From Candidatus Kaiserbacteria bacterium (lineage in GTDB: Bacteria > Patescibacteriota > Minisyncoccia > Phycocordibacterales > UBA918), in contig JAYSTK010000171.1 of assembly GCA_043719825.1 (NCBI GenBank), positions 1-55,154 on the forward strand: DNA of 55,154 nucleotides. Reading direction: 5' to 3'. The notes beneath the pieces are model-generated. The model made no database searches. It was not told the DNA's origin and saw only the letters and a program-made list of their open reading frames with translations. Below are positions 11,253 through 24,471 of this stretch, piece by piece. Numbering within the stretch: position 1 is the first letter of the stretch; every line of letters starts with the position of its first letter. Position numbers and translations under genes: made by a program.

Positions 11253-13247
11253 TTAAGGAATTAATCTCCTATATGTTCTTGGAAATGGGACTGCATCCTG
11301 AACCATTTCTTTATTTAGAATTTTTGCAATAAGCCGATCAATGCCAATACAAAAACCTCCATGTTGCACAGCCTTATCAACTATGGAAATATAAAATTCA
11401 TAGTCACTAATATTAATTCCTGATAGTGACATTGATTTCTGAATCTTTTGCCCATCAGTTTGTCGTATCGCACCACTTACCAATTCCCATCCACCGACAA
11501 TAACATCAAATGTTTCAGTTAATCCCCCAGGTTTATCCTTAGTGTAAAACTTCTTAATAGTGTCTGGGTAATCCTTAATGACAAAAATATCACTATCGTA
11601 TTCATTTTTAATAAGTTGTCCGAGTTTTGCTTCACTCACCAAGCCGAGATCATCACCTAATGTAACTGGGTTTCCATTTTTTCGAAGAAGCTCGATCGCT
11701 TCATGATACGTTAATACTGGAAGACTATCGATGTTCGGAAATGATAAACTATTTGAAAGTTTGAATGTCTGAACAATTTCAGTATTAGACATCATTATTA
11801 TAGTGCACGCTAAACGATAGAGCTCTTCTAGATTCTTTGGATTACTTAGTTCTATGTCTAATCCGAGAGACTCTTGTAAATGTCTGTATGATTCATTCTC
11901 TTCCTTCCTCCAAAATGGACCAATTTCGTATATTTTGTGCAATCCTGAAGCTACAAGTATTTGTTTATACATTTGATTTGATTGACGCAAGAATGCGGTC
12001 GTTCCATTTATCCAATCAACATTAATTGTCCCACCCTTATCAATCTTGGGAGGATCAGTAGATATGCCAACAATATAGGGTGTGGTGACCTCAATAAACT
12101 CTTTTTCTGATAAATAATTTCTTACATTACTTATCAGAAGTGCTCGTTGTCTTACAAGGTCCAGCTTTTGTTTATCGAGTTTTAATCCATGAGTTTTTTG
12201 TCGATGAATGTATAATTTCCCAACACTAGTATTAATGTTGTCAATGATTACATTAAGCTTTTTCTGTATTACTGTACGAACTTTATTAATTTCAACTCTA
12301 CGAATTCCCGTATTACTTTCTGCAATTTTTGATAGTTCTTTAATATCTACGAAGGTACCAAATTTTCTATCCAATAATGGCTGTGAAGCAAGATCAATCT
12401 TGTAGATATTTTCAGTGCTAGGTATTGAGCTAACTAAATCATTAATTAGTTTGTTAGTATCGTCATTGCTATCTACTGCAACAATAATACAGCCAACATT
12501 AGCTGGAATCATACTACTATCAAAAGGAAGATAGTGAGCGGTTTCGACATCAAGTTTTTCATTTTTAATAATGATCGGAGTACGGTTTACAATATATAAA
12601 GGAAGTGATAGTTCTTGATTTAATATCTTTGCAATAAGTTTGCCAGACTTCCCATAGCCAATCAAAAGAATGTTCTTGTTTTGTATAATATTTTGTGAAA
12701 CAAGTCCACATGCAATTCTTTCAAGTGAAATATTACCTTCAAAAATATGAGTCCTCAACTTACATTCACTCACCACACCTTTAATCCATTCTGCTAAAAG
12801 TCTAAAGAGTTCATTTGCATCTGTGGTATGAATTCCAGATAATAAAGCATCATTTATCTGACCAGCAACCTGAGAATCTCCAATTGTCACACTATGTAGC
12901 CCAACTGCACATTCGGCTAAAAAGTTTATTGCATCAACTCCATGAAAAATTCTTATGTCTCTGATTGTATTCAATATGCTTACTTCAACGCATTGATCCC
13001 ATGTTGAAAGTAATCTACCACGTAAATGGTCTAAAGAAATATCATCCTGATACGAAATAAGCACCATGATTGCATTGCATTTTTTTACAATTGCGAGTGA
13101 ATCGATTTCTATTCCAAGATTACTTCTAAATCTGGTTAAAGTTACAACGTCGTTTTTTAAGTCTGCATTTTTTAAATTGGTCAAAGCTCGATCATCGAGT
13201 CTCTGATAGTTTAATACAGCACAGACTATTTTGTGGTTTAGTTGCAT
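11253..13247 (-). CDS. fusion protein: glutamyl-tRNA reductase (HemA)-like N-terminal half plus class IIb aaRS (archaeal-type AspRS/AsnRS) catalytic core lacking an anticodon-binding domain
   Basis: N-terminal half: KKCNAIMVL (compare HemA STCNRTELY), FLAECAVGLHSVTIGDSQVAGQI (compare [23 protein letters not shown]), Rossmann LLIGYGKSGKLIAKIL, IVNRT. C-terminal half: FIEVTTPYIV, FLRQSNQMYKQ, FWRKEENESYRHLQESLGLDIEL (motif 2), GGWELVSGAIRQ, HGGFCIGIDRLIAKIL (motif 3), terminal FPRTYRRLIP. Confidence 0.75.
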   Translation of the reverse strand: MQLNHKIVCAVLNYQRLDDRALTNLKNADLKNDVVTLTRFRSNLGIEIDSLAIVKKCNAIMVLISYQDDISLDHLRGRLLSTWDQCVEVSILNTIRDIRIFHGVDAINFLAECAVGLHSVTIGDSQVAGQINDALLSGIHTTDANELFRLLAEWIKGVVSECKLRTHIFEGNISLERIACGLVSQNIIQNKNILLIGYGKSGKLIAKILNQELSLPLYIVNRTPIIIKNEKLDVETAHYLPFDSSMIPANVGCIIVAVDSNDDTNKLINDLVSSIPSTENIYKIDLASQPLLDRKFGTFVDIKELSKIAESNTGIRRVEINKVRTVIQKKLNVIIDNINTSVGKLYIHRQKTHGLKLDKQKLDLVRQRALLISNVRNYLSEKEFIEVTTPYIVGISTDPPKIDKGGTINVDWINGTTAFLRQSNQMYKQILVASGLHKIYEIGPFWRKEENESYRHLQESLGLDIELSNPKNLEELYRLACTIIMMSNTEIVQTFKLSNSLSFPNIDSLPVLTYHEAIELLRKNGNPVTLGDDLGLVSEAKLGQLIKNEYDSDIFVIKDYPDTIKKFYTKDKPGGLTETFDVIVGGWELVSGAIRQTDGQKIQKSMSLSGINISDYEFYISIVDKAVQHGGFCIGIDRLIAKILNKEMVQDAVPFPRTYRRLIP

Positions 13248-14009: not shown

Positions 14010-15398
14010 TTATTTTATACTAATTTTGAGTTCATTAAGTTGTTGAATAGTCACCTCAGATGGCGAATCCATCATTACGTCTCTTCCTTCACCTGTCTTA
14101 GCAAATGCAATTATTTCGCGAATATTTGGTTCATTTTGAAGAAGCATGACAAGACGATCAAACCCAAAGGCAAGTCCCCCATGTGGCGGTGTACCTGATG
14201 CAAGTGCCTTGAGCATGTGACCAAAATTATTCTCAATTCTTTCTGCAGAATATCCCATAACCTCAAACACTTTTTTAAGTGCCTCGGGATCATGATTACG
14301 AATCCCACCCCCACCAATTTCATAGCCGTTTAGAACTATGTCGTATTGGGATGCGATAATTTCATCAATATTCTCTTTTGCCATCAAGTCTTTGATGTAC
14401 TCAGGCTTCGGTGAAGAGAATGGATTGTGAGTAAATGTCCAGCCATCCTCATCAGTTCTTTCAAAGAAAGGAAAGTCGATAACCCAACAGAATGCTAGAA
14501 GATTTTTATTCTCCTTATCTTTACGTAGATCAGGCTTGTCGCTACCGTACGTTTCCATAGCATCTTCGTATGAGAGTCGGGGAAAAGGCACCTCCTGGAT
14601 TTCTTTTTCAGGATATAACGTTTCAACTAAATTAAGAATAAGTTTCTCATTGATGGACATGACATCTTCCTGTTCAACAAAGCTCATTTCCATGTCGATT
14701 TGTGTAAATTCAGGTTGACGATCTCCCCGCGTATCTTCATCTCTGAAGCATCTAGCAATTTGAAAATACTTTTCAAAACCTGCAGCCATAAGAAGCTGTT
14801 TATACTGCTGTGGTGACTGTGGAAGTGCATAAAATTTCCCCGTGAATACACGTGAAGGAATGATGTAGTCGCGGGAACCTTCAGGAGTAGACTTAGTCAT
14901 ATTTGGTGTTTCGATTTCAGTAAAACCTTCATGTGAATAGAATTCGCGGACTTTTTGTAATAACATGTGTCGACTATAAATATTTTTCTGCATTCGTTCA
15001 CGACGAAGATCTATGTATCGATAACGAAGACGAACCTCTTCATTTATCTCTTTTCCATCACCAGTAATATCAAAGGGTGGTGTATCAGCTTTGTTAAGAA
15101 CGTCTATTATTAAAATCTCCAATTCGATATCGCCATTTTGTTTATCCATTTGTATGGCTCGATCGGGCCGTTTATTCACCTTACCTGTTACCGCCACCAC
15201 CCACTCAGGTCGAAGTGTTGAACCGATTTCGTGCGCCTTTAATGCATTTGGTAATATCACTCCTTGAATTTTTCCTGACATATCTCGAAAATCTAAGAAT
15301 ATAAGTTTCCCTTGATCTCGACGTATATCAACCCAACCTTTAATGAGGACGGTTTCTTCGATGTGTTCTGAAAGTTTGTTTATAAGGATTCTTTCCAT
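14010..15398 (-). CDS. aspS: aspartyl-tRNA synthetase, bacterial type but without the GAD insertion domain
   Basis: QSPQQYKQLLM, motif 2 FRDEDTRGDRQPEFTQIDMEMSF, motif 3 GGLAFGFDRLVMLL. YGSDKPDLRKDKENKNLLAFCWVIDFPFFE shows the insertion is absent. The track ORF starts at a TTG (15419). I prefer the first ATG (MERILINKL, 15398). The start is uncertain. Confidence 0.9.
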   Translation of the reverse strand: MERILINKLSEHIEETVLIKGWVDIRRDQGKLIFLDFRDMSGKIQGVILPNALKAHEIGSTLRPEWVVAVTGKVNKRPDRAIQMDKQNGDIELEILIIDVLNKADTPPFDITGDGKEINEEVRLRYRYIDLRRERMQKNIYSRHMLLQKVREFYSHEGFTEIETPNMTKSTPEGSRDYIIPSRVFTGKFYALPQSPQQYKQLLMAAGFEKYFQIARCFRDEDTRGDRQPEFTQIDMEMSFVEQEDVMSINEKLILNLVETLYPEKEIQEVPFPRLSYEDAMETYGSDKPDLRKDKENKNLLAFCWVIDFPFFERTDEDGWTFTHNPFSSPKPEYIKDLMAKENIDEIIASQYDIVLNGYEIGGGGIRNHDPEALKKVFEVMGYSAERIENNFGHMLKALASGTPPHGGLAFGFDRLVMLLQNEPNIREIIAFAKTGEGRDVMMDSPSEVTIQQLNELKISIK

Positions 15399-15424
15399 AT
15401 GTATATATTGTATATGCAAGTAAA

Positions 15425-15610
15425 TGTAGAAACGAAAGTCGCCCCTACAGATACAGTAAGTGAATAAAAGTATCTGTAGGGGCGACTGTGTCGCGGTGCC
15501 ACCCTACTTCCCTGCCGTATTCGGCGCGGGCGCTTTAGTTCGCTCAGCTACGAGAACCGATCACAAAATGGTTTCGGTGGTTGTCAGCCACAGGAGCGAT
15601 ATACAAAGAT
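15425..15610 (-). promoter_or_regulatory. T-box riboswitch leader of the aspS operon (terminator/antiterminator type)
   Basis: The minus strand reads GUAGGGUGGCACCGCGAC (plus 15490-15507), matching the T-box core AGGGUGGNACCGCG. It is followed by an 18-bp terminator (plus 15437-15454 / 15470-15487) and UUUCGUUUC. A Stem III-like hairpin GCCG-AAUA-CGGC lies upstream. GAC followed by A sits in the loop GUGG-CUGACAA-CCAC (GAC = plus 15583-15585). Confidence 0.8.
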
Positions 15611-15683
15611 TCTATAAGGATTGTGAGGTTTGGTCAAATTGAAATACTTGACAGACCAATATTATTTGTATATAGTATCATCA

Positions 15684-15848
15684 CTTGACTGGATAGCTTT
15701 GATGTTCTCAACATCACTGCAAAGCCACAGGTTAGCATCAGGCACTGTACCCAAAGTTTGGTGCGAAATGGGTAGGCTTAGGAAGTGGTCGTCCGAAAGC
15801 TGACATAGACCAAGGTCCCATGCATGAGCATTGGGACCTTTCTTTTAC
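15684..15848 (+). ncRNA. orphan structured small RNA candidate (family not recognised)
   Basis: Promoter: TTGACA (15648-15653), 17-nt spacer, TATAGT (15671-15676). Terminator: 9-bp hairpin AAGGTCCCA/TGGGACCTT (15812-15840) followed by TCTTTT. Nested stems: GCTTTG...CAAAGC around GATGTT..AACATC, GTTAGC...GCTGAC, TACCCA...TGGGTA. Lies between aspS and trpS, on the opposite strand to both. Confidence 0.4.
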
Positions 15849-15849
15849 T

Positions 15850-16794
15850 TTAGAGTGAAATACCAACTTTTTGTCTAACTTCCTGCATCTTCTTTGAAGC
15901 GCGTTCGCGGGCGCGGGCGGCGCCATCCTGAAGAATAGCTTTCACGTCGTTGTCTGTGATCGCCGCGCGTGCTTCACGCATTGGACTCACGTATACATTA
16001 ATGTCCTCAATAAGAGCTTCTTTTAGATTCTTATATTTCCCTTTATTGGATTCATAAAGAAGTGAAAGTTCTGACTCAGATTTGAGGAGTTTGTGAATGG
16101 CGTACACATTTTCAGGTACGTCACTTCCTGAATTGGTCACAATACCCATAACCGCCTTTTGTATCTCCTCATGTGTTCCAAAAAGTGGAATGGTGTTCTT
16201 GTAGCTCTTCGACATTTTCTGTCCATCGGTGCCCGGAACTATACCTACCGCTGTAAGAATTTTTTCTTGAGGGGGTACAAATGTTTCACCAAAGGCATTA
16301 TTAAATTTTGTGGCAGCTTCGCGTGCATATTCGATGTGCTGACGTTGGTCCTCCCCCACCGGGACGACCTCCGTATCATAGAGTAAAATATCTGCTGCCA
16401 TGAGCATTGGGTAATTAAAAAGTCCTGCACTCGCTTCGACACCCTTTGCCGTTTTATCTTTGTACGCGTGTGCTTGCATAAGAAATGGAACAGTAACGAG
16501 ACATTCAAATATCCAGGCAAGTTCAGTATGTTCAGGCACATCTGATTGCTTGAAAATGATTGCTTCTTTTGGATCAACACCAACGGCAATGTAGTCTTTC
16601 ACGACATCTAGAATGTTTTGACGAAGAGCACTTGCATCACGAACCGTGGTGAGTGAGTGAAGGTCTGCAACCATAAGGTGGCTTTCGTAATCACGATAGA
16701 CATCAGTAAAAGGTTTTAGCACACCAAAATAGTTTCCGATATGGAGCACACCGGAGGATTGTAGACCAGTGAGAAGTCGTTTTTTATTACTCAT
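15850..16794 (-). CDS. trpS: tryptophanyl-tRNA synthetase
   Basis: GVLHIGNYFG (HIGH-type) and KMSKS. I set the start at MSNKKRLLTG (ATG 16792-16794) rather than the upstream in-frame codon of the track ORF. Confidence 0.93.
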   Translation of the reverse strand: MSNKKRLLTGLQSSGVLHIGNYFGVLKPFTDVYRDYESHLMVADLHSLTTVRDASALRQNILDVVKDYIAVGVDPKEAIIFKQSDVPEHTELAWIFECLVTVPFLMQAHAYKDKTAKGVEASAGLFNYPMLMAADILLYDTEVVPVGEDQRQHIEYAREAATKFNNAFGETFVPPQEKILTAVGIVPGTDGQKMSKSYKNTIPLFGTHEEIQKAVMGIVTNSGSDVPENVYAIHKLLKSESELSLLYESNKGKYKNLKEALIEDINVYVSPMREARAAITDNDVKAILQDGAARARERASKKMQEVRQKVGISL

Positions 16795-16926
16795 ACTATG
16801 AATACTAACAAAATCAGTAGTGTTTAGAAAGCACATTTTATAAATGGGTCAGACAACATAAATCACCTGACTTAATTGACAAAATGAATTATAAATGCAT
16901 AGTATATATCGGAACTGAACCTTGAA

Positions 16927-17505
16927 ATGGAGCACATAATGATCATTACTCTCACTGGACCTTCTGGTGTTGGTAAGGGTCACCTCACCGCACAGCTGCA
17001 ATCTGAGCTCGGAGCAAAGATTGTCCCCTGGACTACGACACGGCCAGCTCGCTCTGATGATGTTACGACCAACAACCGTCGTTTTGTCACCCGGGAGGAG
17101 TTTGATCTGATGCAGTCTGAGGGATTGCTTATCGGCGTCCAAAACCTGCATGGACACAAATACGGTCTGGAGCAAACGCTTCTCGGGATGACCGACAGAG
17201 AAGGAACATACATTTGCGAAATCAACAGCGCTAATGTCCTGACCCTCTTCCCTGTTATTTATCGACGTTTCAGCGTTGCTCTCGTCACCGATGATTTTCA
17301 ACTGTTGAAAGAGCGTATTCAGAAACGCGAACCCAATGTTGGGAATGTGGAACTGAGAGACCGTCTGGAAACAGCGGTCAAGGAGGTGGGACTTGTTCGC
17401 ACCAACGCATCATTGTTCCATCTACAAATCAACGTCGATATCTGCCACGCATCAGCAGTCGCGTCCATCGCGATTGAAGCCATCAGAAAAGGAGTAGGCT
17501 CATGA
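16927..17505 (+). CDS. guanylate kinase-like P-loop kinase
   Basis: P-loop GPSGVGKG, then TTTRPARSDD, FVTREEFDLM and HGHKYGL, in guanylate-kinase order. Visibly GC-richer than the surroundings. Its stop overlaps the next start (ATGA). Confidence 0.75.
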   Translation: MEHIMIITLTGPSGVGKGHLTAQLQSELGAKIVPWTTTRPARSDDVTTNNRRFVTREEFDLMQSEGLLIGVQNLHGHKYGLEQTLLGMTDREGTYICEINSANVLTLFPVIYRRFSVALVTDDFQLLKERIQKREPNVGNVELRDRLETAVKEVGLVRTNASLFHLQINVDICHASAVASIAIEAIRKGVGS

Positions 17506-18654
17506 ATATTCGGACAAAAGTCGGCTTGGTTGAACTGAACAGCCCGCTCCTTATCGGTTCAGGCTACATCACGGAGGATACTTCGTTCTATGCTCGCTCG
17601 GTCACTCGTGGCTGTGCTGGCATGGTTTCGAGGTCGCTCAAGCTGAACGTTCCCAAAGAACGTCAGCGCGTACCTGCACCTCGCTACGTCGTCACCAATG
17701 ACGGATCGATGCTCAACTGTGAGTGGGGCAATGAAAAACCGTGGACGGATTGGCGAGAAAAAGAGTTTCGTCTGGCCAAAGAGATTCGGGGTGCCATCAT
17801 CATCTCCATCAGTGGGCGTGATGTGGAAAGTTGCAAACAGCTAATCCACGAACTCGACCCGTTCGAACCAGATGCATACGAGGTGAACATCTCGTATGCA
17901 CACTCAGGTGAGCTTCACGGCAACCTGAATCTGGACATCGAACATCTCAGGTACGTCCTTCGCACCATTCGACCCCTGACAAAGAGGCCGATCTGGGTAA
18001 AGCTGTCCTACTCGTCAATCCTTCTGGACATGGCGGTGGCGGCTGAGCAAAATGGAGCTGACGCAATCGTGTGCACCAACTCGATCGGACCGGGACTATA
18101 TCTCGATCCAAAGACTGGTCGCCCGCTACTCGGAATCATGGGTGGAGCTGGTGGACTCACAGGTAGTGCGATCTTTCCGATTGCCCTCCAGTGTGTGTAC
18201 AAGCTATATACACCTGAGCATTCCCATCGTGGGTGTCGGCGGAATAAGCACTGCCGAACATGTGGTTCAGATGATGCTCGCTGGTGCAAGTGCGGTTCAA
18301 CTATACACCGCTCCTGCACTGCACGGTCCCCGTGTCTTTGAGGACATCACCAATGGCCTCGAAAGTTACCTTGCGGACCATGAAGTGTTCTCGAACTGCG
18401 CCGAGCTGGTCGGGTATTCACATACCCTGACCGAACAGCATGTGTTCGATGCGCCTCCCCCACTGGTGATTGCTGACAAATGCACAGGATGTCTCGAGTG
18501 TGCATCATCATGCGCATTTGAAGCCCTCAAGTTTGTCAGTCGAGGAGCAGACCAGCCGAAGCTCGTAGTCATCAAAGACAACTGCATCGGTTGCAACGCG
18601 TGCGTCGGCGTCTGTCCCCCAGAATTCGATGCATTTAAGATCCAAATGAGGTAA
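17502..18654 (+). pseudogene. PreA / dihydroorotate-dihydropyrimidine dehydrogenase-like flavoprotein with C-terminal 2x[4Fe-4S] domain, interrupted by a frameshift
   Basis: The frame-0 ORF (17502..18341) carries the TIM-barrel N-terminal part up to GGLTGSAIFPIALQCVYKLY. The frame+1 ORF (18052..18654) continues with IHLSIPIVGVGGISTAEHVVQMMLAGASAVQLYTA, then CTGCLECASSC and CIGCNACVGVCP. The frames join at the TATATA tract near 18207-18215. Confidence 0.75.
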
Positions 18655-18656
18655 CT

Positions 18657-18917
18657 ATGAAAAAAACCAAACGCCTCTTTGGCATTAAAATCCATTGTGC
18701 TCAGTGTCTCGCTTTTTTGTTCAAGTACGAAAAGGAGGGCCCTGGCTCATTGGTAAAATGCTTCACGAGCAATATCAGCGAGGATGCCACAAAAGGCGAC
18801 GGGGTTTGTGCCTCATGTGTTACGCAGTTTGCTCGTGACGGGAAGATTGGCAATCGTCCCATCCTCAAGATAATCCAAGGTCGTGTAAACGTGAAGGGTA
18901 ACACCGGAAAGAAATAG
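18657..18917 (+). CDS. small Zn-ribbon-like protein, unknown function
   Basis: CAQC ... CASC cysteine pairs. Starts 2 nt after the preceding stop. Same GC-rich composition as the two upstream genes. Confidence 0.5.
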   Translation: MKKTKRLFGIKIHCAQCLAFLFKYEKEGPGSLVKCFTSNISEDATKGDGVCASCVTQFARDGKIGNRPILKIIQGRVNVKGNTGKK

Positions 18918-18957
18918 CAACATTGGAATTAGCCATCCCTTGCAACAGGGGTGGTTT

Positions 18958-19572
18958 TTATATACCAAACGCATTTTTAAAATATGTCTCTGACTCCACA
19001 TTGGCATCAAAAATGATGTTCGCTTCTTTATTCAACAACTCTATATACGCAAAGTATTCTGCGTCGGAATATGTAGTCAGATTTAATTCGTCTAGAACCT
19101 CTTTGAGTGAAGACTGTGCTTTTTCAGTTCCTTCTGTTTCAGATAATTCGATTTCCGCTTCAAAAAAATATGAATGCCCCGGCACTTCTACCATCGCAAT
19201 TTCTACACCATGATATGTGTACACATTTATATTGCGTACACATAACACTCCCTTACTAAGACCAAGTAATTTATATACCTGCACTAACGTATCAAACGGA
19301 TCGTTTGTCTTGAGGCTGTATTCACGACGAACATCACTACCGCCCCACGCACCAGTCTTTAAAATAATTTCAGAAAGTTTATTCGTATTTCGTAAACGAA
19401 TATCTAGTTTACGACCTTCAATCCCCTGCTCTGGTAAACATGTACTGTAATCAATCAATATTCGCTCTTTTCTTTGAATAAACTCCCCATTTTTAAGTAT
19501 TTTTTCTATTAGAGCAGGAATATATAACTTATCCAGTAATCCTCTCATCTCGATTTCAATAGTTTTTGACAT
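18958..19572 (-). CDS. CYTH domain protein (CyaB/triphosphate tunnel metalloenzyme-like)
   Basis: N-terminal IEIEMRG (ExExK-like), central DIRLR and LKTG, C-terminal GHSYFFEAEIEL, typical of CYTH. Composition is AT-rich, like the host backbone. Confidence 0.65.
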   Translation of the reverse strand: MSKTIEIEMRGLLDKLYIPALIEKILKNGEFIQRKERILIDYSTCLPEQGIEGRKLDIRLRNTNKLSEIILKTGAWGGSDVRREYSLKTNDPFDTLVQVYKLLGLSKGVLCVRNINVYTYHGVEIAMVEVPGHSYFFEAEIELSETEGTEKAQSSLKEVLDELNLTTYSDAEYFAYIELLNKEANIIFDANVESETYFKNAFGI

Positions 19573-19605
19573 ACAGGTATTCTTAACGTCCCTAAGGGAT
19601 CTTTT

Positions 19606-19728
19606 TTAAAGATGACTCGCATACTCTTTATATGAATCGACAAAGGGTTTTAATGCTCCAAAATAATTGCCAATATGGAGCGTTCCTGAAGGTTGTAGGC
19701 CGGTAAGGAGGCGTTTTTTATTACTCAT
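19606..19728 (-). pseudogene. truncated diverged duplicate of the trpS 5' end (first 40 codons, then a stop)
   Basis: Encodes MSNKKRLLTGLQPSGTLHIGNYFGALKPFVDSYKEYASHL*. By hand count, 32 of 40 residues match the trpS N-terminus. A 30-nt run spanning the start codon (19712-19741) is identical to 16788-16817. Confidence 0.85.
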
Positions 19729-19765
19729 ACTATGAATACTAGCAAACATCAGTGAATCAAGAAAG

Positions 19766-20011
19766 TTATTTTGGATGTTTGATGATAGAAATAATAATGT
19801 AATGAGGTTCAACAATATAGAAGTAGAAACGCCAATTTCTATCAATGCGTGCCTGCCATAGATCGTCGTCACCTTTGTACTTTTTTGCGTGAAGTGATGG
19901 ATGACGAACATCATTCATAAGGTACTCAAATTGCTTGTCAGCTTGTTTTTGAAGTGTTGAGGTAAGTTTTTGGTATTGTCGTATTGCTACTTCTGTCAAC
20001 TTAACTCGCAT
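19766..20011 (-). CDS. RelE/ParE-family type II toxin
   Basis: 81 aa, with the pattern HPSLHAKKYKGDDDLWQARIDRNWRFYFYIV...IISIIKHPK typical of the RelE/ParE fold. Overlaps the upstream antitoxin gene by 11 nt. Confidence 0.7.
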   Translation of the reverse strand: MRVKLTEVAIRQYQKLTSTLQKQADKQFEYLMNDVRHPSLHAKKYKGDDDLWQARIDRNWRFYFYIVEPHYIIISIIKHPK

Positions 20012-20261
20012 CGTATTCTTTTATCTTTTTCTTGAATTCATTGGTAGAGCCAAATTCTATGTATCTTCCCGCTTTAATATCCTCAAGTGACTTCTTTATG
20101 TCGCGCATAAGAGGAGCGTCTCTTTCTACTCCACGTTCAAGAATAATTTGATTATCTTTTTGTGAGACAAAAAGAACCTCGCCTTCTTTAAGGTCGAGAG
20201 ATTCACGTATTTTCTTCGGAAGTGTCAGTGTGCCTCGTTGTTGAATGCGTATAGTGTTCAT
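20001..20261 (-). CDS. AbrB/SpoVT/MazE-type antitoxin
   Basis: N-terminal looped-hinge-helix pattern IRIQQRGTLTLPKKIRESLDLKEGEVLFV. 86 aa. Lies upstream of and overlaps the toxin gene. Confidence 0.7.
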   Translation of the reverse strand: MNTIRIQQRGTLTLPKKIRESLDLKEGEVLFVSQKDNQIILERGVERDAPLMRDIKKSLEDIKAGRYIEFGSTNEFKKKIKEYDAS

Positions 20262-20318
20262 GTGCTATATAATATCATAATACTGAAAATCTGCAAATCT
20301 GTATTTCAGGAAATAACG

Positions 20319-20510
20319 TTATCGATTTCGTATTAGAAAGAGTGTGGTTGCAGCAATTGCACCCAGAGTGTCGGCGAGCATGTCTTTCTGAGCATCCTAT
20401 ATGTCACCCTGGCTTCCAAGATACGATGCTCCAGCTTCTGGTGCAGCACTTGCAATGTATACCCATTCAATGAGTTCGTAGCTCATAGCGATTGTTGTAA
20501 TAGCAAATAC
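20319..20510 (-). pseudogene. remnant of a DUF2238 (YjdF-like) membrane protein gene with an in-frame stop
   Basis: Minus-strand translation gives ...AITTIAMSYELIEWVYIASAAPEAGASYLGSQGDI*DAQKDMLADTLGAIAATTLFLIRNR*. The ELIEW...GxQGDxWDxQxDM pattern matches DUF2238 as I recall it. TAG sits where the conserved Trp (TGG) is expected. No N-terminal part is present. Confidence 0.45.
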
Positions 20511-20529
20511 GGGATATTAAAAGAGAAGC

Positions 20530-20889
20530 TCACTCAATAACAAGTTTTGATTGAGTACGGTCAAGAACACTATTTATCTGTTCATTCGTAAGATCTGCAA
20601 ACGATAGTTTTGGATCGCAGTAGTGTCTTCCAGTTCGAATTTTTCCATTTTGGAGTTCAAGTACTATGACTTGTGGAGTTCGGTACACTTTTCCCGTATC
20701 AGGATCTGGATAACTTTCAATCATTTCTACCATTACCACGTCTTCACTTTCAATTATATTTCGAATGTCGTACCGACGACCACGGATTACGTACACCTCT
20801 TCAAGTTCAGATTCAAGATGTGGTGTTGTCTTTGGAAAGAATTCGTCACCTTTCTGGTACATCCAGGTCATAGTGTAATCCTCAGACAT
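20530..20889 (-). CDS. SnoaL/NTF2-like fold protein (hypothetical)
   Basis: 119 aa. C-terminal VIVLELQNGKIRTGRHYCDP resembles the dGKI...y.D end of SnoaL-like proteins. This is a weak call. Confidence 0.45.
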   Translation of the reverse strand: MSEDYTMTWMYQKGDEFFPKTTPHLESELEEVYVIRGRRYDIRNIIESEDVVMVEMIESYPDPDTGKVYRTPQVIVLELQNGKIRTGRHYCDPKLSFADLTNEQINSVLDRTQSKLVIE

Positions 20890-20993
20890 CTTTTCAAGTG
20901 CAGATGCGACATCACCGTCAACCTCATTTTTAGAATACCTAGAACTATTTCAACATTTTTACTTTGAGCCATATGATCGAATTATTTGGCTTT

Positions 20994-21065
20994 TCAACTT
21001 AGGAGTGAAAATTCAATATTGAAGGTAGAGCCTAGACCTTCTGATTTTGGAATGACTTTTCCTTT
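20994..21065 (-). pseudogene. remnant of a histidine kinase 3' end
   Basis: Minus strand encodes KGKVIPKSEGLGSTFNIEFSLLS*. Compare the end of the intact kinase at 22807: GGRVWAESEGEGQGSTFNIEFPLI*. The nucleotide match GAAAATTCAATATTGAAGGTAGAGCC...GACCTTCT is clear by eye. Confidence 0.55.
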
Positions 21066-21096
21066 AATTTAATCCACCATTTATCATTTTATAACT

Positions 21097-21567
21097 TTAA
21101 TTTTTGCAATATTTAGTAACAAAGTCCTGTGCTCCTTTAATATTAGCAGTTGTACCATTCCGAACAGGAAGAGAACTTTTACCATTTAAAATATTTTGAA
21201 AATCCATACAGGACTCGTCAATGTATTCTCGGTATACTTCATAGGCACTATGCATAAGAGTAATTGCATCGTTTGAACAGCCAGAATTTGCAATATCACT
21301 TTTTTCACTTTTAAATGGTATAAGTACGCTTAAATAATCATCATTAATGTCACTTACTGATACAGTATTTTCATCTATATCAATGACTATGCGCTTTTCC
21401 TCAGCTTTAGGATTGCTATAGTTTTTGCAATTACTTTTTAATTCTTGGTCAATCTGGAAGCCTAATACCCATGGACCCATTGCGAATGCTAGCAAAATAG
21501 CTGTCGCAAGACCAAGGAAACAGGCTATCAGCTTTTGGAGAGTAACGTGTGAAATAAATTTTCTCAT
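21097..21567 (-). CDS. membrane-anchored hypothetical protein, paralog of 22249..22668
   Basis: I set the start at MRKFISH to avoid overlap with the upstream gene. N-terminal TM. Shares the SGCS...EVY.EY motif with the 22249 protein (IANSGCSNDAITLMHSAYEVYREY vs FSGCSPEIQEKMLEINEIAKEVYGEEY). Confidence 0.55.
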   Translation of the reverse strand: MRKFISHVTLQKLIACFLGLATAILLAFAMGPWVLGFQIDQELKSNCKNYSNPKAEEKRIVIDIDENTVSVSDINDDYLSVLIPFKSEKSDIANSGCSNDAITLMHSAYEVYREYIDESCMDFQNILNGKSSLPVRNGTTANIKGAQDFVTKYCKN

Positions 21568-21586
21568 GTAAATATTAATCAAAGAA

Positions 21587-22231
21587 TTAGTAAACGGCAT
21601 TGATACCATTTCTGTCAGTTGACTGATAGCCAGTAATTTGTGTCCATCTCCCACTATTGCACCCAAGAGTCCCATCATTCATTATTGAATCAGCAGAGCA
21701 GTGATGAGCAAGTCCAAGTGAGTGCCCAGTTTCATGCATAATAAGTCTCTGTCGACTTAAAGAAGAAGCATTGTTCCACCATGCCAAGCTAATCTTAATC
21801 TGTGACCGAACTCCGCATGGGTATGTCTGCTGCCAAAAAGTGCAGTACGAAGAAGTATTTTTAATATCAAAGTTTTCTCCTGGTGTTGGGTGTGTGCTTA
21901 CATAGCTTAATTTAATATCAGTGTTGTAACTCCATGTGCCAGAACAATTGTACTGTGACATTTTTATGCCATTTTTCCAGTCAGACATTTCGGTCGTACC
22001 TGTAGTTGAAGTTTTAATTTTTGAAAACGCACTCGTTTCTGCTGAGTTACAATTTGTAGAAGACACATAAAGCAACCCTGAATACCCGGATTTGACACTC
22101 ATCCATAAATGACCAACCGATGGGAAAGTTCCCTTTGTGTGTGATGCGTTTGCGAAATATGTCGAAGTTACCAAAAGAATAGTAAACGTCCCTGTAAACA
22201 CTATATACTGTCCAATAAAATTATTTGTCAT
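21587..22231 (-). CDS. secreted zinc metalloprotease, metzincin-type (snapalysin/matrixin-like)
   Basis: HETGHSLGLAHH (HExxHxxGxxH) followed by SIMND (Met-turn candidate). Hydrophobic N-terminal signal-like segment. Confidence 0.8.
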   Translation of the reverse strand: MTNNFIGQYIVFTGTFTILLVTSTYFANASHTKGTFPSVGHLWMSVKSGYSGLLYVSSTNCNSAETSAFSKIKTSTTGTTEMSDWKNGIKMSQYNCSGTWSYNTDIKLSYVSTHPTPGENFDIKNTSSYCTFWQQTYPCGVRSQIKISLAWWNNASSLSRQRLIMHETGHSLGLAHHCSADSIMNDGTLGCNSGRWTQITGYQSTDRNGINAVY

Positions 22232-22248
22232 GTTTATTTTTAATATTC

Positions 22249-22668
22249 CTATCTATTAAATAACAAATCATATTCTTCACCGTATACTTCTTTTGCTATC
22301 TCATTAATTTCTAGCATTTTTTCCTGTATTTCCGGTGAACACCCAGAAAAACCTGACTTGGGTTCAAAGGGTAAAGTGGCAGAGGCATTTTCACCACTTG
22401 TGTCAGACCAAAAAAAGGTTACTGTTCCATCTAAATTGAATGTTGAATCATCTATCTGTGAGACCGAGACTGGCAAGGTACAAGTAAAAGATGCCGTATT
22501 TTTCTCGGGTATGCCGACGTGTATAGGTGTAACATTAACAGAATTTTCATTCTGCACATCACTTACTTGCTTGACCAAGACTTGATAACCAAGGGTAATA
22601 AAAATAGCAACCAAAAAGAGTAAAACGAGGATGACAAAACTTTGTTTTTTCATACCAATCAACTTCAT
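22249..22668 (-). CDS. membrane-anchored hypothetical protein, paralog of 21097..21567
   Basis: N-terminal TM (FVILVLLFLVAIFITLGY). Carries the shared SGCS/EVY motif. Confidence 0.55.
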   Translation of the reverse strand: MKLIGMKKQSFVILVLLFLVAIFITLGYQVLVKQVSDVQNENSVNVTPIHVGIPEKNTASFTCTLPVSVSQIDDSTFNLDGTVTFFWSDTSGENASATLPFEPKSGFSGCSPEIQEKMLEINEIAKEVYGEEYDLLFNR

Positions 22669-22806: not shown

Positions 22807-24471
22807 TTAAATAAGTGGAAATTCAATATTGAATGTAGAGCCCTGACCTTCTCCTTCTGACTCTGCCCACACTCGACCACCCATATCGGTGACCATTTTC
22901 TTCGCGACGAAAAGACCAAGACCAGTACCCGTGACATTCACGTTGTTCGCGTTCTTTGCACGAACAAATTTTTCAAATACTTCACCTTGCGTGTCCTTGC
23001 TCATGCCCACGCCCGTATCTTGGATCGTAATATACATTTTCTTCTTTTTTATATCGTCATGCGCGACTACCGTAATAGTTCCCTTCGGAGTGTATTTCAT
23101 TGAGTTATCAATGAGATTCATAATAACTTGACGTACTTTCCCGATATCAGCATGCACAAGGCATCCAGCGTCACAATCTGAGCGGAATACCATAACGAGA
23201 CCCTTTTTTAAAGCAACAGAACGAAGTTCGTCTGTAATTTTTTCTGCAACCTCCTTTAAACTAAAATCACTCATCTCATATTTCATGTTCCCTGCTTCGA
23301 TTCGTGACACATTGAGATAATCTTCAACTGAGAGCGCCATGTATTTTGATGATTCTGCAATGCGTTCAGCCACTTCCTGTGCCTTTGCAGTCAATTTCCC
23401 ATATGAACCCTCAGCAAGCATTGATGCATATCCGCGGATTGAGGTAAGTGGACTTCGAAGCTGGTGTGACGCGATAGATACAAACTCAGACTTCATTTTA
23501 TCAAGCACTTTAAGTTTTTCGTTTGCCTTCTGCAGACTCTCTACGAGATGTTCAATTTGCTCTCGTTGTTTTACTTCCTTGTTTACACTTCGTACAAGGA
23601 AATAACCACCGATACATGCAAGGAAAAATGTTATTCCAACCAATATTTGGTTAGTCGTTGACTCGACAAAGAAAAACTCTGAACCAATGAGAAGAATTAG
23701 TGAAGCAACAAGTGCTTGAGCAGCAAGTAGTTTTATATTGAATGCTTTAAATTTCACAATTGAGTATGACAAAAGTGCTAAAAATAGAAGCATTCCGACA
23801 GGACCTACTAGGTTAATTTCGTATTCGCCTGAATGTAGAGCAAGATATTCTGAAAAAGAAAGGAAAATAAGAAAACAAGAACATGCCGCTAGTAAAAATA
23901 GATGTGCTAGTTTCTCCGCTCTTACATTAGGTTTTAATGTAACCCGAACAGCTTTGTATACACACCAAAGTATGGAAAGACCAGCAAGAAAATAAACGTA
24001 CGTTATAAGAGGTCCACTGATAGCTTCGCAATAATCTAGATCGAAAGATTGAATATTTAAAGATGTGGGTAAAAGTAAAATCACCGGTAAAGACAAAAGA
24101 AACGTAAAAAAATTATATTTAAAAGGAACTGATTTTTTTTCAATATATAAATAAGCAAAGTAAACAATAGCTATTATGATTAATAATCGTAGAAGTGGAA
24201 CGAGTGCCCAACCAAATGTAACAACCGCAGCTGGTATTGCAATCCAAAGTATAATTTCATTAATAATTGAGACTGCAAATAAAACAGTTATTAAAAAAAG
24301 TGCCCGTGAGCGTGATGAATATTTATCTTGAAATAGAATAAAAATACCAATGATTAATGCTGTAATTGCAATAGGGATATACGAGTAGAATAGAAGTGGC
24401 GGAGCTACACCGATATCAAATATCCCCAAGAGTGTTGGGTAGGTGTCAGTACACATGAGTAAATCAGACAT
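22807..24471 (-). CDS. sensor histidine kinase with large polytopic N-terminal domain (no adjacent response regulator)
   Basis: H-box SHQLRSPLTSIRGY, N-box NLIDNSMKYT, G-boxes QDTGVGM and GTGLGL. The first ~290 aa are hydrophobic. Confidence 0.9.
   Translation of the reverse strand: MSDLLMCTDTYPTLLGIFDIGVAPPLLFYSYIPIAITALIIGIFILFQDKYSSRSRALFLITVLFAVSIINEIILWIAIPAAVVTFGWALVPLLRLLIIIAIVYFAYLYIEKKSVPFKYNFFTFLLSLPVILLLPTSLNIQSFDLDYCEAISGPLITYVYFLAGLSILWCVYKAVRVTLKPNVRAEKLAHLFLLAACSCFLIFLSFSEYLALHSGEYEINLVGPVGMLLFLALLSYSIVKFKAFNIKLLAAQALVASLILLIGSEFFFVESTTNQILVGITFFLACIGGYFLVRSVNKEVKQREQIEHLVESLQKANEKLKVLDKMKSEFVSIASHQLRSPLTSIRGYASMLAEGSYGKLTAKAQEVAERIAESSKYMALSVEDYLNVSRIEAGNMKYEMSDFSLKEVAEKITDELRSVALKKGLVMVFRSDCDAGCLVHADIGKVRQVIMNLIDNSMKYTPKGTITVVAHDDIKKKKMYITIQDTGVGMSKDTQGEVFEKFVRAKNANNVNVTGTGLGLFVAKKMVTDMGGRVWAESEGEGQGSTFNIEFPLI

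Follow-up and report, generated by a model that had tools for sequence, protein, structure and literature searches.

In the stretch of DNA analysed here (the window: 55,154 nt, positions 1 to 55,154 of contig JAYSTK010000171.1 of a Candidatus Kaiserbacteria bacterium) the beginning of trpS, the gene for tryptophanyl-tRNA synthetase (TrpRS), is present twice: once as part of the intact gene and once as a fragment of 40 codons that lies next to a toxin–antitoxin (TA) pair. Between the two copies a module of four genes is situated, coding for a guanylate-kinase-like protein, a flavoenzyme related to dihydroorotate dehydrogenase (DHOD) with a ferredoxin-like C-terminus, a protein of 86 aa and a CYTH-like protein. 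We consider it somewhat better than an even chance that this arrangement is the scar of one recombination with related DNA of the Paceibacteria lineage, in which a homologous crossover in trpS was combined with an illegitimate join, similar to homology-facilitated illegitimate recombination (HFIR). The parts of the locus on which this reading is built are:

15850-16794, minus strand: intact trpS, 314 aa, ATG at 16792-16794 (Pfam tRNA-synt_1b, E 1.8e-55)
16535-16560, minus strand: tentative homologous crossover zone, about nt 233-257 of trpS (maximum chi-square)
16675-16812, minus strand: repeat copy B, comprising the extended -10 promoter TGTTAGTAT, the evidently leaderless start of the working trpS and its first 40 codons (direct-repeat family D1)
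19606-19746, minus strand: repeat copy A, an apparently displaced trpS promoter with start codon, 40 codons and TAA (repeat detection, colinearity with L001)
19766-20011, minus strand: toxin, 81 aa, ParE/RelE-like (ParE-like / RelE_StbE, E 6e-3 to 1e-2, below cut-off)
20001-20261, minus strand: antitoxin, 86 aa, AbrB/MazE-like (MazE/AbrB, E 3e-8, above cut-off)
22807-24471: histidine-kinase gene, outer flank

Duplicated trpS start and empty site

The coding part of copy A (19609-19728, minus strand) reads MSNKKRLLTGLQPSGTLHIGNYFGALKPFVDSYKEYASHL and is followed by TAA at 19606-19608. A first-pass annotation of the window had described the first 40 residues of TrpRS followed by a stop at this place. 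This was confirmed, 32 of the 40 residues being identical to residues 1-40 of the intact protein. As a direct repeat the two copies (16675-16812 and 19609-19746) extend over 138 nt with 75% identity and a spacing of 2,934, and blastn aligned them with 81% identity over 112 nt (E 3.7e-19). Past codon 40 the similarity ends abruptly, CTT being followed by TAA in copy A and by ATG in copy B.

The longest exact repeat is a perfect run of 30 nt across the start codon, situated at 16778-16807 and 19712-19741 within sequence that is otherwise 68% identical. The run had been noticed before, with the first of its two positions given 10 nt too high (16788-16817). Upstream of the run the similarity is solid only to about -18/-23, which corresponds to the extended -10 promoter motif. 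Of the roughly 50 nt of upstream similarity proposed in the first-pass annotation, this part is indeed shared; farther upstream (-19 to -75) copies A and B reach a score of 9, which is not above that of shuffled sequences (8.3 +/- 1.7). Judging from the motif TGnTAnnAT, which is kept about 7 nt before the trpS ATG in many of 80 relatives, trpS is evidently leaderless, and both copies evidently retain a complete promoter.

The nearest relatives of the intact TrpRS are 84-86% identical (search of 5.8 billion proteins), and an exact-protein look-up with the 314-aa sequence gave no match. The names of the nearest TrpRS relatives are all of the Paceibacteria/Kaiserbacteria type. As no TrpRS more than 86% identical was present in the protein collection, neither an empty site of the same species nor the donor could be obtained. 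The closest relative with the same neighbourhood is L001 (JANOXF010000026), whose TrpRS is 85% identical. In L001 the genes for SnoaL, antitoxin, toxin and TrpRS are contiguous, with a spacer of 38 nt and nothing else between the toxin gene and trpS. L001 7319-8235 is colinear with window 20528-19609 (77.8% identity), uninterrupted from the TA pair to the last codon of the fragment, and L001 8124-9060 is colinear with window 16786-15850 (76.4%). Compared to L001 the window contains 2,934 bp extra, and the position of copy A, adjoining the toxin gene, is the ancestral one. In this empty-site comparison neither the cargo genes nor a second trpS start were found in any of 85 trpS loci. The contiguous site in L001 and the colinear flanks support the earlier proposal that DNA was inserted between the TA pair and trpS.

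The TA pair does lie just beyond the fragment, as had been read from the sequence before. Its genes are small, overlap by 11 nt and match families of type II TA systems; L001 and L017 both have kept this pair, which belongs to the native flank common with L001 (80% identity for the toxin and 87% for the antitoxin). The DNA identity to L001 is 76-78% throughout, in the TA segment and the SnoaL gene as well as in trpS and the C-terminal part of the histidine-kinase gene. With the histidine-kinase gene having diverged from L001 to an equal degree, both flanks look vertically inherited.

The contig was assembled from a metagenome, where related strains are often found together, and the structure could be a chimera of two such strains. 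An independent Logan contig (L134, SRR23617209, reported in 2 samples) is however 100% identical over 7,119 bp (window 15529-22647) and reproduces both junctions as well as a frameshift in the module that is described below. The right junction has no shared sequence and no repeat of a length at which an assembler could go astray; no exact repeat is longer than the one of 30 nt. With the second assembly concordant across both junctions an assembly chimera appears hardly credible.

Divergence of the copies and probable direction of transfer

Copies A and B differ at 34 of the 120 coding sites, and the differences are distributed 6/6/22 over the three codon positions (chi-square p 5e-4). The proportion of nonsynonymous differences (pN) is 0.14 and that of synonymous differences (pS) is 0.79, which means saturation; pN/pS is about 0.17. 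Compared to copy B, copy A has no indels and no internal stops, and it keeps consensus TrpRS residues including HIGN. At the conserved positions that differ, copy A has the consensus residues T16, A25, and V30, and the intact gene has the rare residues V16, V25, and T30. Over codons 7-40 the copies are identical at 69 of 102 nucleotides, compared to 73-82 of 102 for the orthologues; the two copies are as distant from each other as orthologues of different genera. The excess of third-position differences and the low pN relative to pS argue that the two trpS starts diverged inside working trpS genes of two separate lineages and were joined recently. This supports the suggestion made in the first-pass annotation of a donor with its own trpS rather than a fresh target-site duplication.

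The direct repeats flanking the insert, and the -10 box, spacer, and start that both copies have in common, could also have arisen if a resident trpS 5' piece of roughly 140-175 nt was duplicated when the module was inserted and then diverged in place. The truncated copy should in that case be neutral, yet copy A carries the signature of constraint just described, with a pN/pS of about 0.17, consensus residues such as HIGN and an open frame free of indels and stops. At the orthologue-like distance of the copies (69/102) a pseudogene would need to have stayed intact through synonymous saturation. A stranded piece of 40 codons could not stay gene-like for so long, which argues for excluding local duplication and drift, and we regard this explanation as very improbable.

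The question which of the two trpS starts is foreign had been left open by the first-pass annotation; here it can be answered tentatively from the intact gene. Over the first ~250 nt the third-position identity of the intact trpS is 0.59 to L081, compared to 0.39-0.46 to other relatives; the remainder of the gene is equidistant from all of them, and the identity to L081 is 0.44 after the breakpoint. The maximum chi-square method placed this breakpoint at nt 233 for L081 versus L085 (permutation p 0.0055), at nt 248 for L081 versus L083 (p 0.004) and at nt 257 for L081 versus L001 (p 0.07). The change of affinity near nt 233-257 is suggestive of a crossover inside the intact trpS. Other approaches were tried as well. 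Neither 5' copy could be assigned to a lineage by its similarities, whether these were taken from protein N-termini, from DNA identities in codon alignment or from blastn-short, the sites being saturated. A search with the first 81 residues for TrpRS sharing V16, V25, and T30 returned only 12 short partial proteins, which were uninformative, and rare residues mapped along TrpRS were not concentrated at the N-terminus (the first 40 residues contain 2 of the 8 rare sites).

Taking as given the duplication, the empty site, the identity of the module and its differing contexts (see below), the signature of purifying selection, the lack of recombinase genes, and the second assembly, we infer a direction of transfer, an HFIR mechanism, a crossover position and a promoter capture. 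The recipient would have had the arrangement SnoaL–antitoxin–toxin–trpS, which is still present in L001. The incoming DNA would have contained the four-gene module, followed by the trpS promoter and the 5' coding region of the donor. One end would have been joined by homologous recombination within trpS, tentatively near nt 233-257 of the gene, and the other end by an illegitimate, HFIR-type join directly past codon 40 of the resident trpS. As a result trpS would have stayed whole, using the leaderless promoter and the first ~80 codons of the donor, and the resident promoter with its 40 codons would have been stranded 33 nt upstream of the CYTH gene. Afterwards the DHOD–ferredoxin gene would have lost 2 bp.

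Several points weigh against this course of events. The breakpoint signal is moderate (p 0.004-0.07) and could reflect mosaicism of L081, the relatives being only about 76% identical. Copy B matches L001 at 77 and copy A at 75 of 102 positions, and similarity cannot tell which 5' copy is foreign because the relatives are ~75% identical in DNA and the synonymous sites are saturated. Furthermore, the postulated donor arrangement with the module adjoining trpS occurs in none of 48 module loci and in none of the 85 trpS loci, and the donor sequence that is needed to see microhomology at the illegitimate join was not found in these loci.

The polarity could also be the reverse. The module and the intact trpS would then be native, and the segment with SnoaL and the TA pair would have come from an L001-like donor, ending at trpS codon 40 and joined illegitimately upstream of the CYTH gene. 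TA pairs are commonly mobile. The relatives L081 and L083-85 are equally close and lack SnoaL and the TA pair; they have DUF2238 upstream of trpS (together with MgtC in L081, L084, and L085). Copy B is also slightly nearer to L081 than copy A (94 versus 84 of 117). The identity of 76-78% to L001 is however uniform over the TA pair, SnoaL, the histidine-kinase C-terminus and trpS, as it would be under vertical descent, the breakpoint signal in the intact trpS is unexpected for a wholly native gene, and the module is found upstream of trpS in no relative. We consider the reversed polarity unlikely, but it deserves to be kept in mind beside the transfer of the module into the trpS locus, which remains our preferred reading.

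The inserted module, its junctions and the neighbourhood

Between the two trpS starts the following features were identified:

16813-16875: left junction spacer, from the trpS promoter copy to the kinase promoter (no homologue)
16876-16905, plus strand: kinase-operon promoter, TTGACA, 18 nt, TAGTAT (promoter scan; aligned upstream regions of L086-L093 and L123)
16927-17505, plus strand: guanylate-kinase-like P-loop kinase, 192 aa (Pfam Guanylate_kin, E 2e-7; PDB guanylate kinases)
17502-18654, plus strand: DHOD/PreA-like flavoenzyme with C-terminal 2x[4Fe-4S], frameshifted (two overlapping open reading frames (ORFs), DHO_dh and Fer4)
18657-18917, plus strand: protein of 86 aa that has two CxxC pairs (a zinc ribbon by eye); its gene is always the third in the module
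18931-18956: hairpin terminator separating the 86-aa gene from the convergent CYTH gene (terminator scan; stem of 10 bp, then a T-run)
18958-19572, minus strand: CYTH-like gene (class IV adenylate cyclase / triphosphatase fold), 204 aa (TIGR00318; PDB 2EEN, 1YEM)
19573-19605: right junction spacer, 33 nt, from the CYTH start to the stop of the fragment, with a small hairpin GTCCCTAAGGGAT (end of module homology)

This module is found in 48 other Patescibacteria loci in unrelated contexts, down to about 46-57% protein identity. The closest copies, L086-88, show 85% DNA identity over window 16891-19573, that is, from upstream of the kinase gene to the start codon of the CYTH gene. The kinase is 91% identical to L086-88 and matches TIGR03263 with E 1.3e-18, which is below the cut-off of this family; its relatives start at 16939, giving 188 aa. 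The two ORFs of the DHOD–ferredoxin gene match DHO_dh positions 4-235 and, in the second ORF, 230-291 plus Fer4. A 2-bp deletion near 18209 relative to L086 splits the gene; the repaired protein is 95% identical to the intact 384-aa protein P0121, and the intact homologues have 382-387 aa. The same frameshift is present in L134. It suggests that the module is decaying or non-essential in this genome. For the 86-aa protein no family match was found in Pfam and NCBIfam, and its gene is in the same place in nearly all module loci that extend far enough. In all module loci the CYTH gene converges with the other three genes (the trio); its identity to L086-88 is 84%.

A CYTH gene and three GC-richer plus-strand genes had been described in the first-pass annotation. 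They are present, the plus-strand cargo genes having 51.5% GC compared to 40.1% for the window, in which nearly all genes are on the minus strand. The plus-strand genes are however seen as four ORFs, and the last gene can be assigned to CYTH only weakly (TIGR00318 cyaB E 4.7e-7, below cut-off; PDB 2EEN E 1e-3). As support for a recent insertion the GC content fails. In 13 of 13 loci measured, the trio has 42-51% GC and the CYTH gene 28-38%, regardless of the GC content of the flanks; the trio is richer than the host flanks by 1 to 16 points (median ~10) in every one of these loci, and the CYTH gene is poorer in all. Because this contrast is constant across all carriers, GC content is uninformative on recent transfer and was rejected as a marker. 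The case is a warning that a local rise in GC content can be a property of a gene family instead of a signal of transfer.

On the left side the homology to L086-88 begins at 16891, and the conserved -35 box of the kinase promoter lies at 16876; the spacer 16813-16875 gave no match to any of the loci with blastn-short. In the closest relatives of the module a non-coding element of the GAGAC/GTCTC type, e.g. CACCCGTCTCAGTCTCTGTCTCATTTAC, is situated just upstream of the kinase promoter (L086 about 1700-1860, L087 1-240, L090 about 243-300, and L091-L093; no Rfam match). It is absent from the window, and the trpS promoter copy occupies its place. On the right side the homology to L086-88 ends at 19573, and the sequence past the CYTH ATG differs in every lineage. 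The illegitimate join would thus lie at or near 19605/19606. The TAA of the trpS fragment is overlapped by a terminator-like hairpin on the plus strand (19588-19610, GTCCCTAAGGGAT then CTTTTTT). A terminator in this orientation would serve none of the genes now present, so the hairpin may have been left over from its surroundings in the donor.

Elsewhere the CYTH gene is the last gene of an operon, situated after a NUDIX gene in L086-88 and after a gene that is TruD-like by eye in distant loci. In the window it is probably the stranded trpS promoter that now transcribes the CYTH gene, which would be a promoter capture. In the distant module loci (L101, L104, L105, L107, L108, L112, L114/115, and L121) the kinase-operon promoter region, TTTACAAAAAGCGGAATTGGTGGTA..., occurs again, mostly inverted, about 1.06 kb beyond CYTH, and the repeat can include as much as 450 nt of the GC-rich sequence upstream of it. 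The second TTTACAAAAAGCGGAATTGGTGGTA copy fronts the TruD-like gene that precedes CYTH. This repetition at both operons suggests a co-regulation of the convergent kinase and CYTH operons in these loci. The flanking repeats in L101, L107, L121, and others were also considered as attachment (att)-like sites and rejected, being mostly inverted copies of the shared promoter region.

No integrase, transposase, or relaxase was found in the ORFs of the insert (Pfam, NCBIfam, PADLOC) or in the flanking ORFs within about 10 kb on each side (Pfam). The corresponding statement of the first-pass annotation on integrases and transposases is borne out for this range. The junctions match no tRNA and no Rfam family, no tRNA lies nearby, and PADLOC gave no credible match to anti-phage defence. 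Carriage of the module by a phage was rejected, no relative of the DHOD–ferredoxin protein being found in viral contigs.

A compact cargo found in many contexts and a perfect 30-nt direct repeat within sequence otherwise 68% identical are also what a site-specific integration might leave. The 2.9-kb block would then be an integrative cassette with an att site that mimics the trpS promoter and start, the 30-nt run would be the att core, and the recombinase would have been lost or act in trans. No integrase is however present within the about 10 kb on each side or in the scanned parts of the window. The site is not reused, as a second trpS start occurs in 0/85 trpS loci and the module beside trpS in 0/48 module loci, and the other module loci have no direct repeats of this kind at their ends. 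The module homology ends at 16891 and 19573 and not at the 30-nt run, and the similarity of the copies extends to either side of the run. Since the distant L014 has the same base at 17 of the 30 positions and the rest are -10 box and spacer, the constraint on a leaderless start suffices to explain the run. Such an integration seems improbable to us. Even less weight can be given to a more far-reaching version, in which the block is an integrase-less mobile cassette of Patescibacteria that homes to leaderless housekeeping promoters by mimicking promoter and first codons, with the 30-nt run as exchange site; if true, the constant GC offset from the hosts would mean continual horizontal movement.

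Each relative has a different stretch between the histidine-kinase gene and trpS, and the region upstream of trpS is thus a hotspot for accessory genes in this clade. Besides the DUF2238 and MgtC genes mentioned above, AF_1845-family genes occur there in L081-84, and L017 has an ORF of 258 aa between the same TA pair and trpS. The AF_1845-family genes were considered as CYTH homologues and rejected, as they are not homologous. A distant CYTH paralogue ~800 nt upstream of trpS in L050 (5638-6123, minus strand; 26% identical, E 2e-8 pairwise) is on the opposite strand and was regarded as a coincidence.

Downstream of trpS, in the gap to aspS (window 15420-15850), a T-box-like leader upstream of aspS was observed at 15475-15615 on the minus strand. 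Its match to Rfam RF00230 scores 26.3 bits (E 3e-4) and falls far short of the gathering score, but it does contain the hallmark AGGGUGGCACCGCG box, with a promoter-like site at 15637-15609, a terminator hairpin at 15449-15425 and an apparently very short stem I, and a patch of 40 nt is 87.5% identical to L001 9806-9844. The aspS gene of the window (14010-15419, minus strand, 469 aa) is 77-79% identical to L002, L005, and L011. It is of another type than aspS of L081, L083, and L085 (33-34% identity) and shows 42% identity to the partial copy in L084. A protein of 664 aa (window 11253-13247, minus strand), in which a GlutR_N/Shikimate_DH-like N-terminus is fused to a class II (D/K/N) aminoacyl-tRNA synthetase core, is encoded near the position of the 444-450-aa aspS of L081, L083, and L085, to which it is 25-28% identical.

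Significance and comparison with known systems

If the proposed recombination took place, the locus is a natural example of how the streamlined bacteria of the candidate phyla radiation, which are poor in mobile elements, gain and reshuffle gene clusters by plain recombination anchored in an essential gene. Such a recombination leaves a gene fragment that can be dated, and the stranded trpS promoter in front of the CYTH gene would be a concrete case of probable promoter capture. The current understanding is unchanged by this; we are dealing with ordinary genome evolution and a scar that is well preserved but of a known kind.

HFIR has been observed during natural transformation of Acinetobacter, Streptococcus pneumoniae, and Pseudomonas stutzeri (defined and summarised in PMC3240628). 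As in HFIR, the incoming DNA would be anchored by homology at one end, here in trpS, and joined non-homologously at the other; genes of mobile elements are not required for this, and the short piece of recipient DNA between the two points would be replaced. In contrast to the HFIR systems, where the process was observed experimentally, it is deduced here from a natural genome, and the illegitimate join would fall within the anchor gene, so that a gene fragment is left behind. Natural competence has been shown in Saccharibacteria, another lineage of the Patescibacteria (PMC10633639).

HFIR has also been proposed for arrays of displaced genes at the effector–immunity loci of type VI secretion systems and at Rhs loci (PMC5361080). 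The orphan genes of these loci resemble the trpS fragment, as interpreted here, in that a resident gene has recombined with the conserved end of an arriving module and its older piece, now displaced, persists as a remnant. There, however, the constant part is the 5' part, and the displaced 3' ends and immunity genes are under selection and often form arrays, whereas the displaced piece in the window is one 5' end, that of a housekeeping gene, and a conflict system plays no part.

Islands that are integrated by an integrase insert at the end of a gene (att sites of the tRNA/tmRNA type) and carry a replacement for this end. The similarities to the locus described here are that direct repeats derived from the target flank the insert, that sequence of the element keeps the target functional and that the displaced copy lies on the far side. 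The locus, in contrast, lacks an integrase and a tRNA, and its site is not used repeatedly. Its repeats, having diverged by 25%, are unlike a conserved core delimited by the ends of an element, and the cargo is a widely conserved, metabolic-looking cluster.

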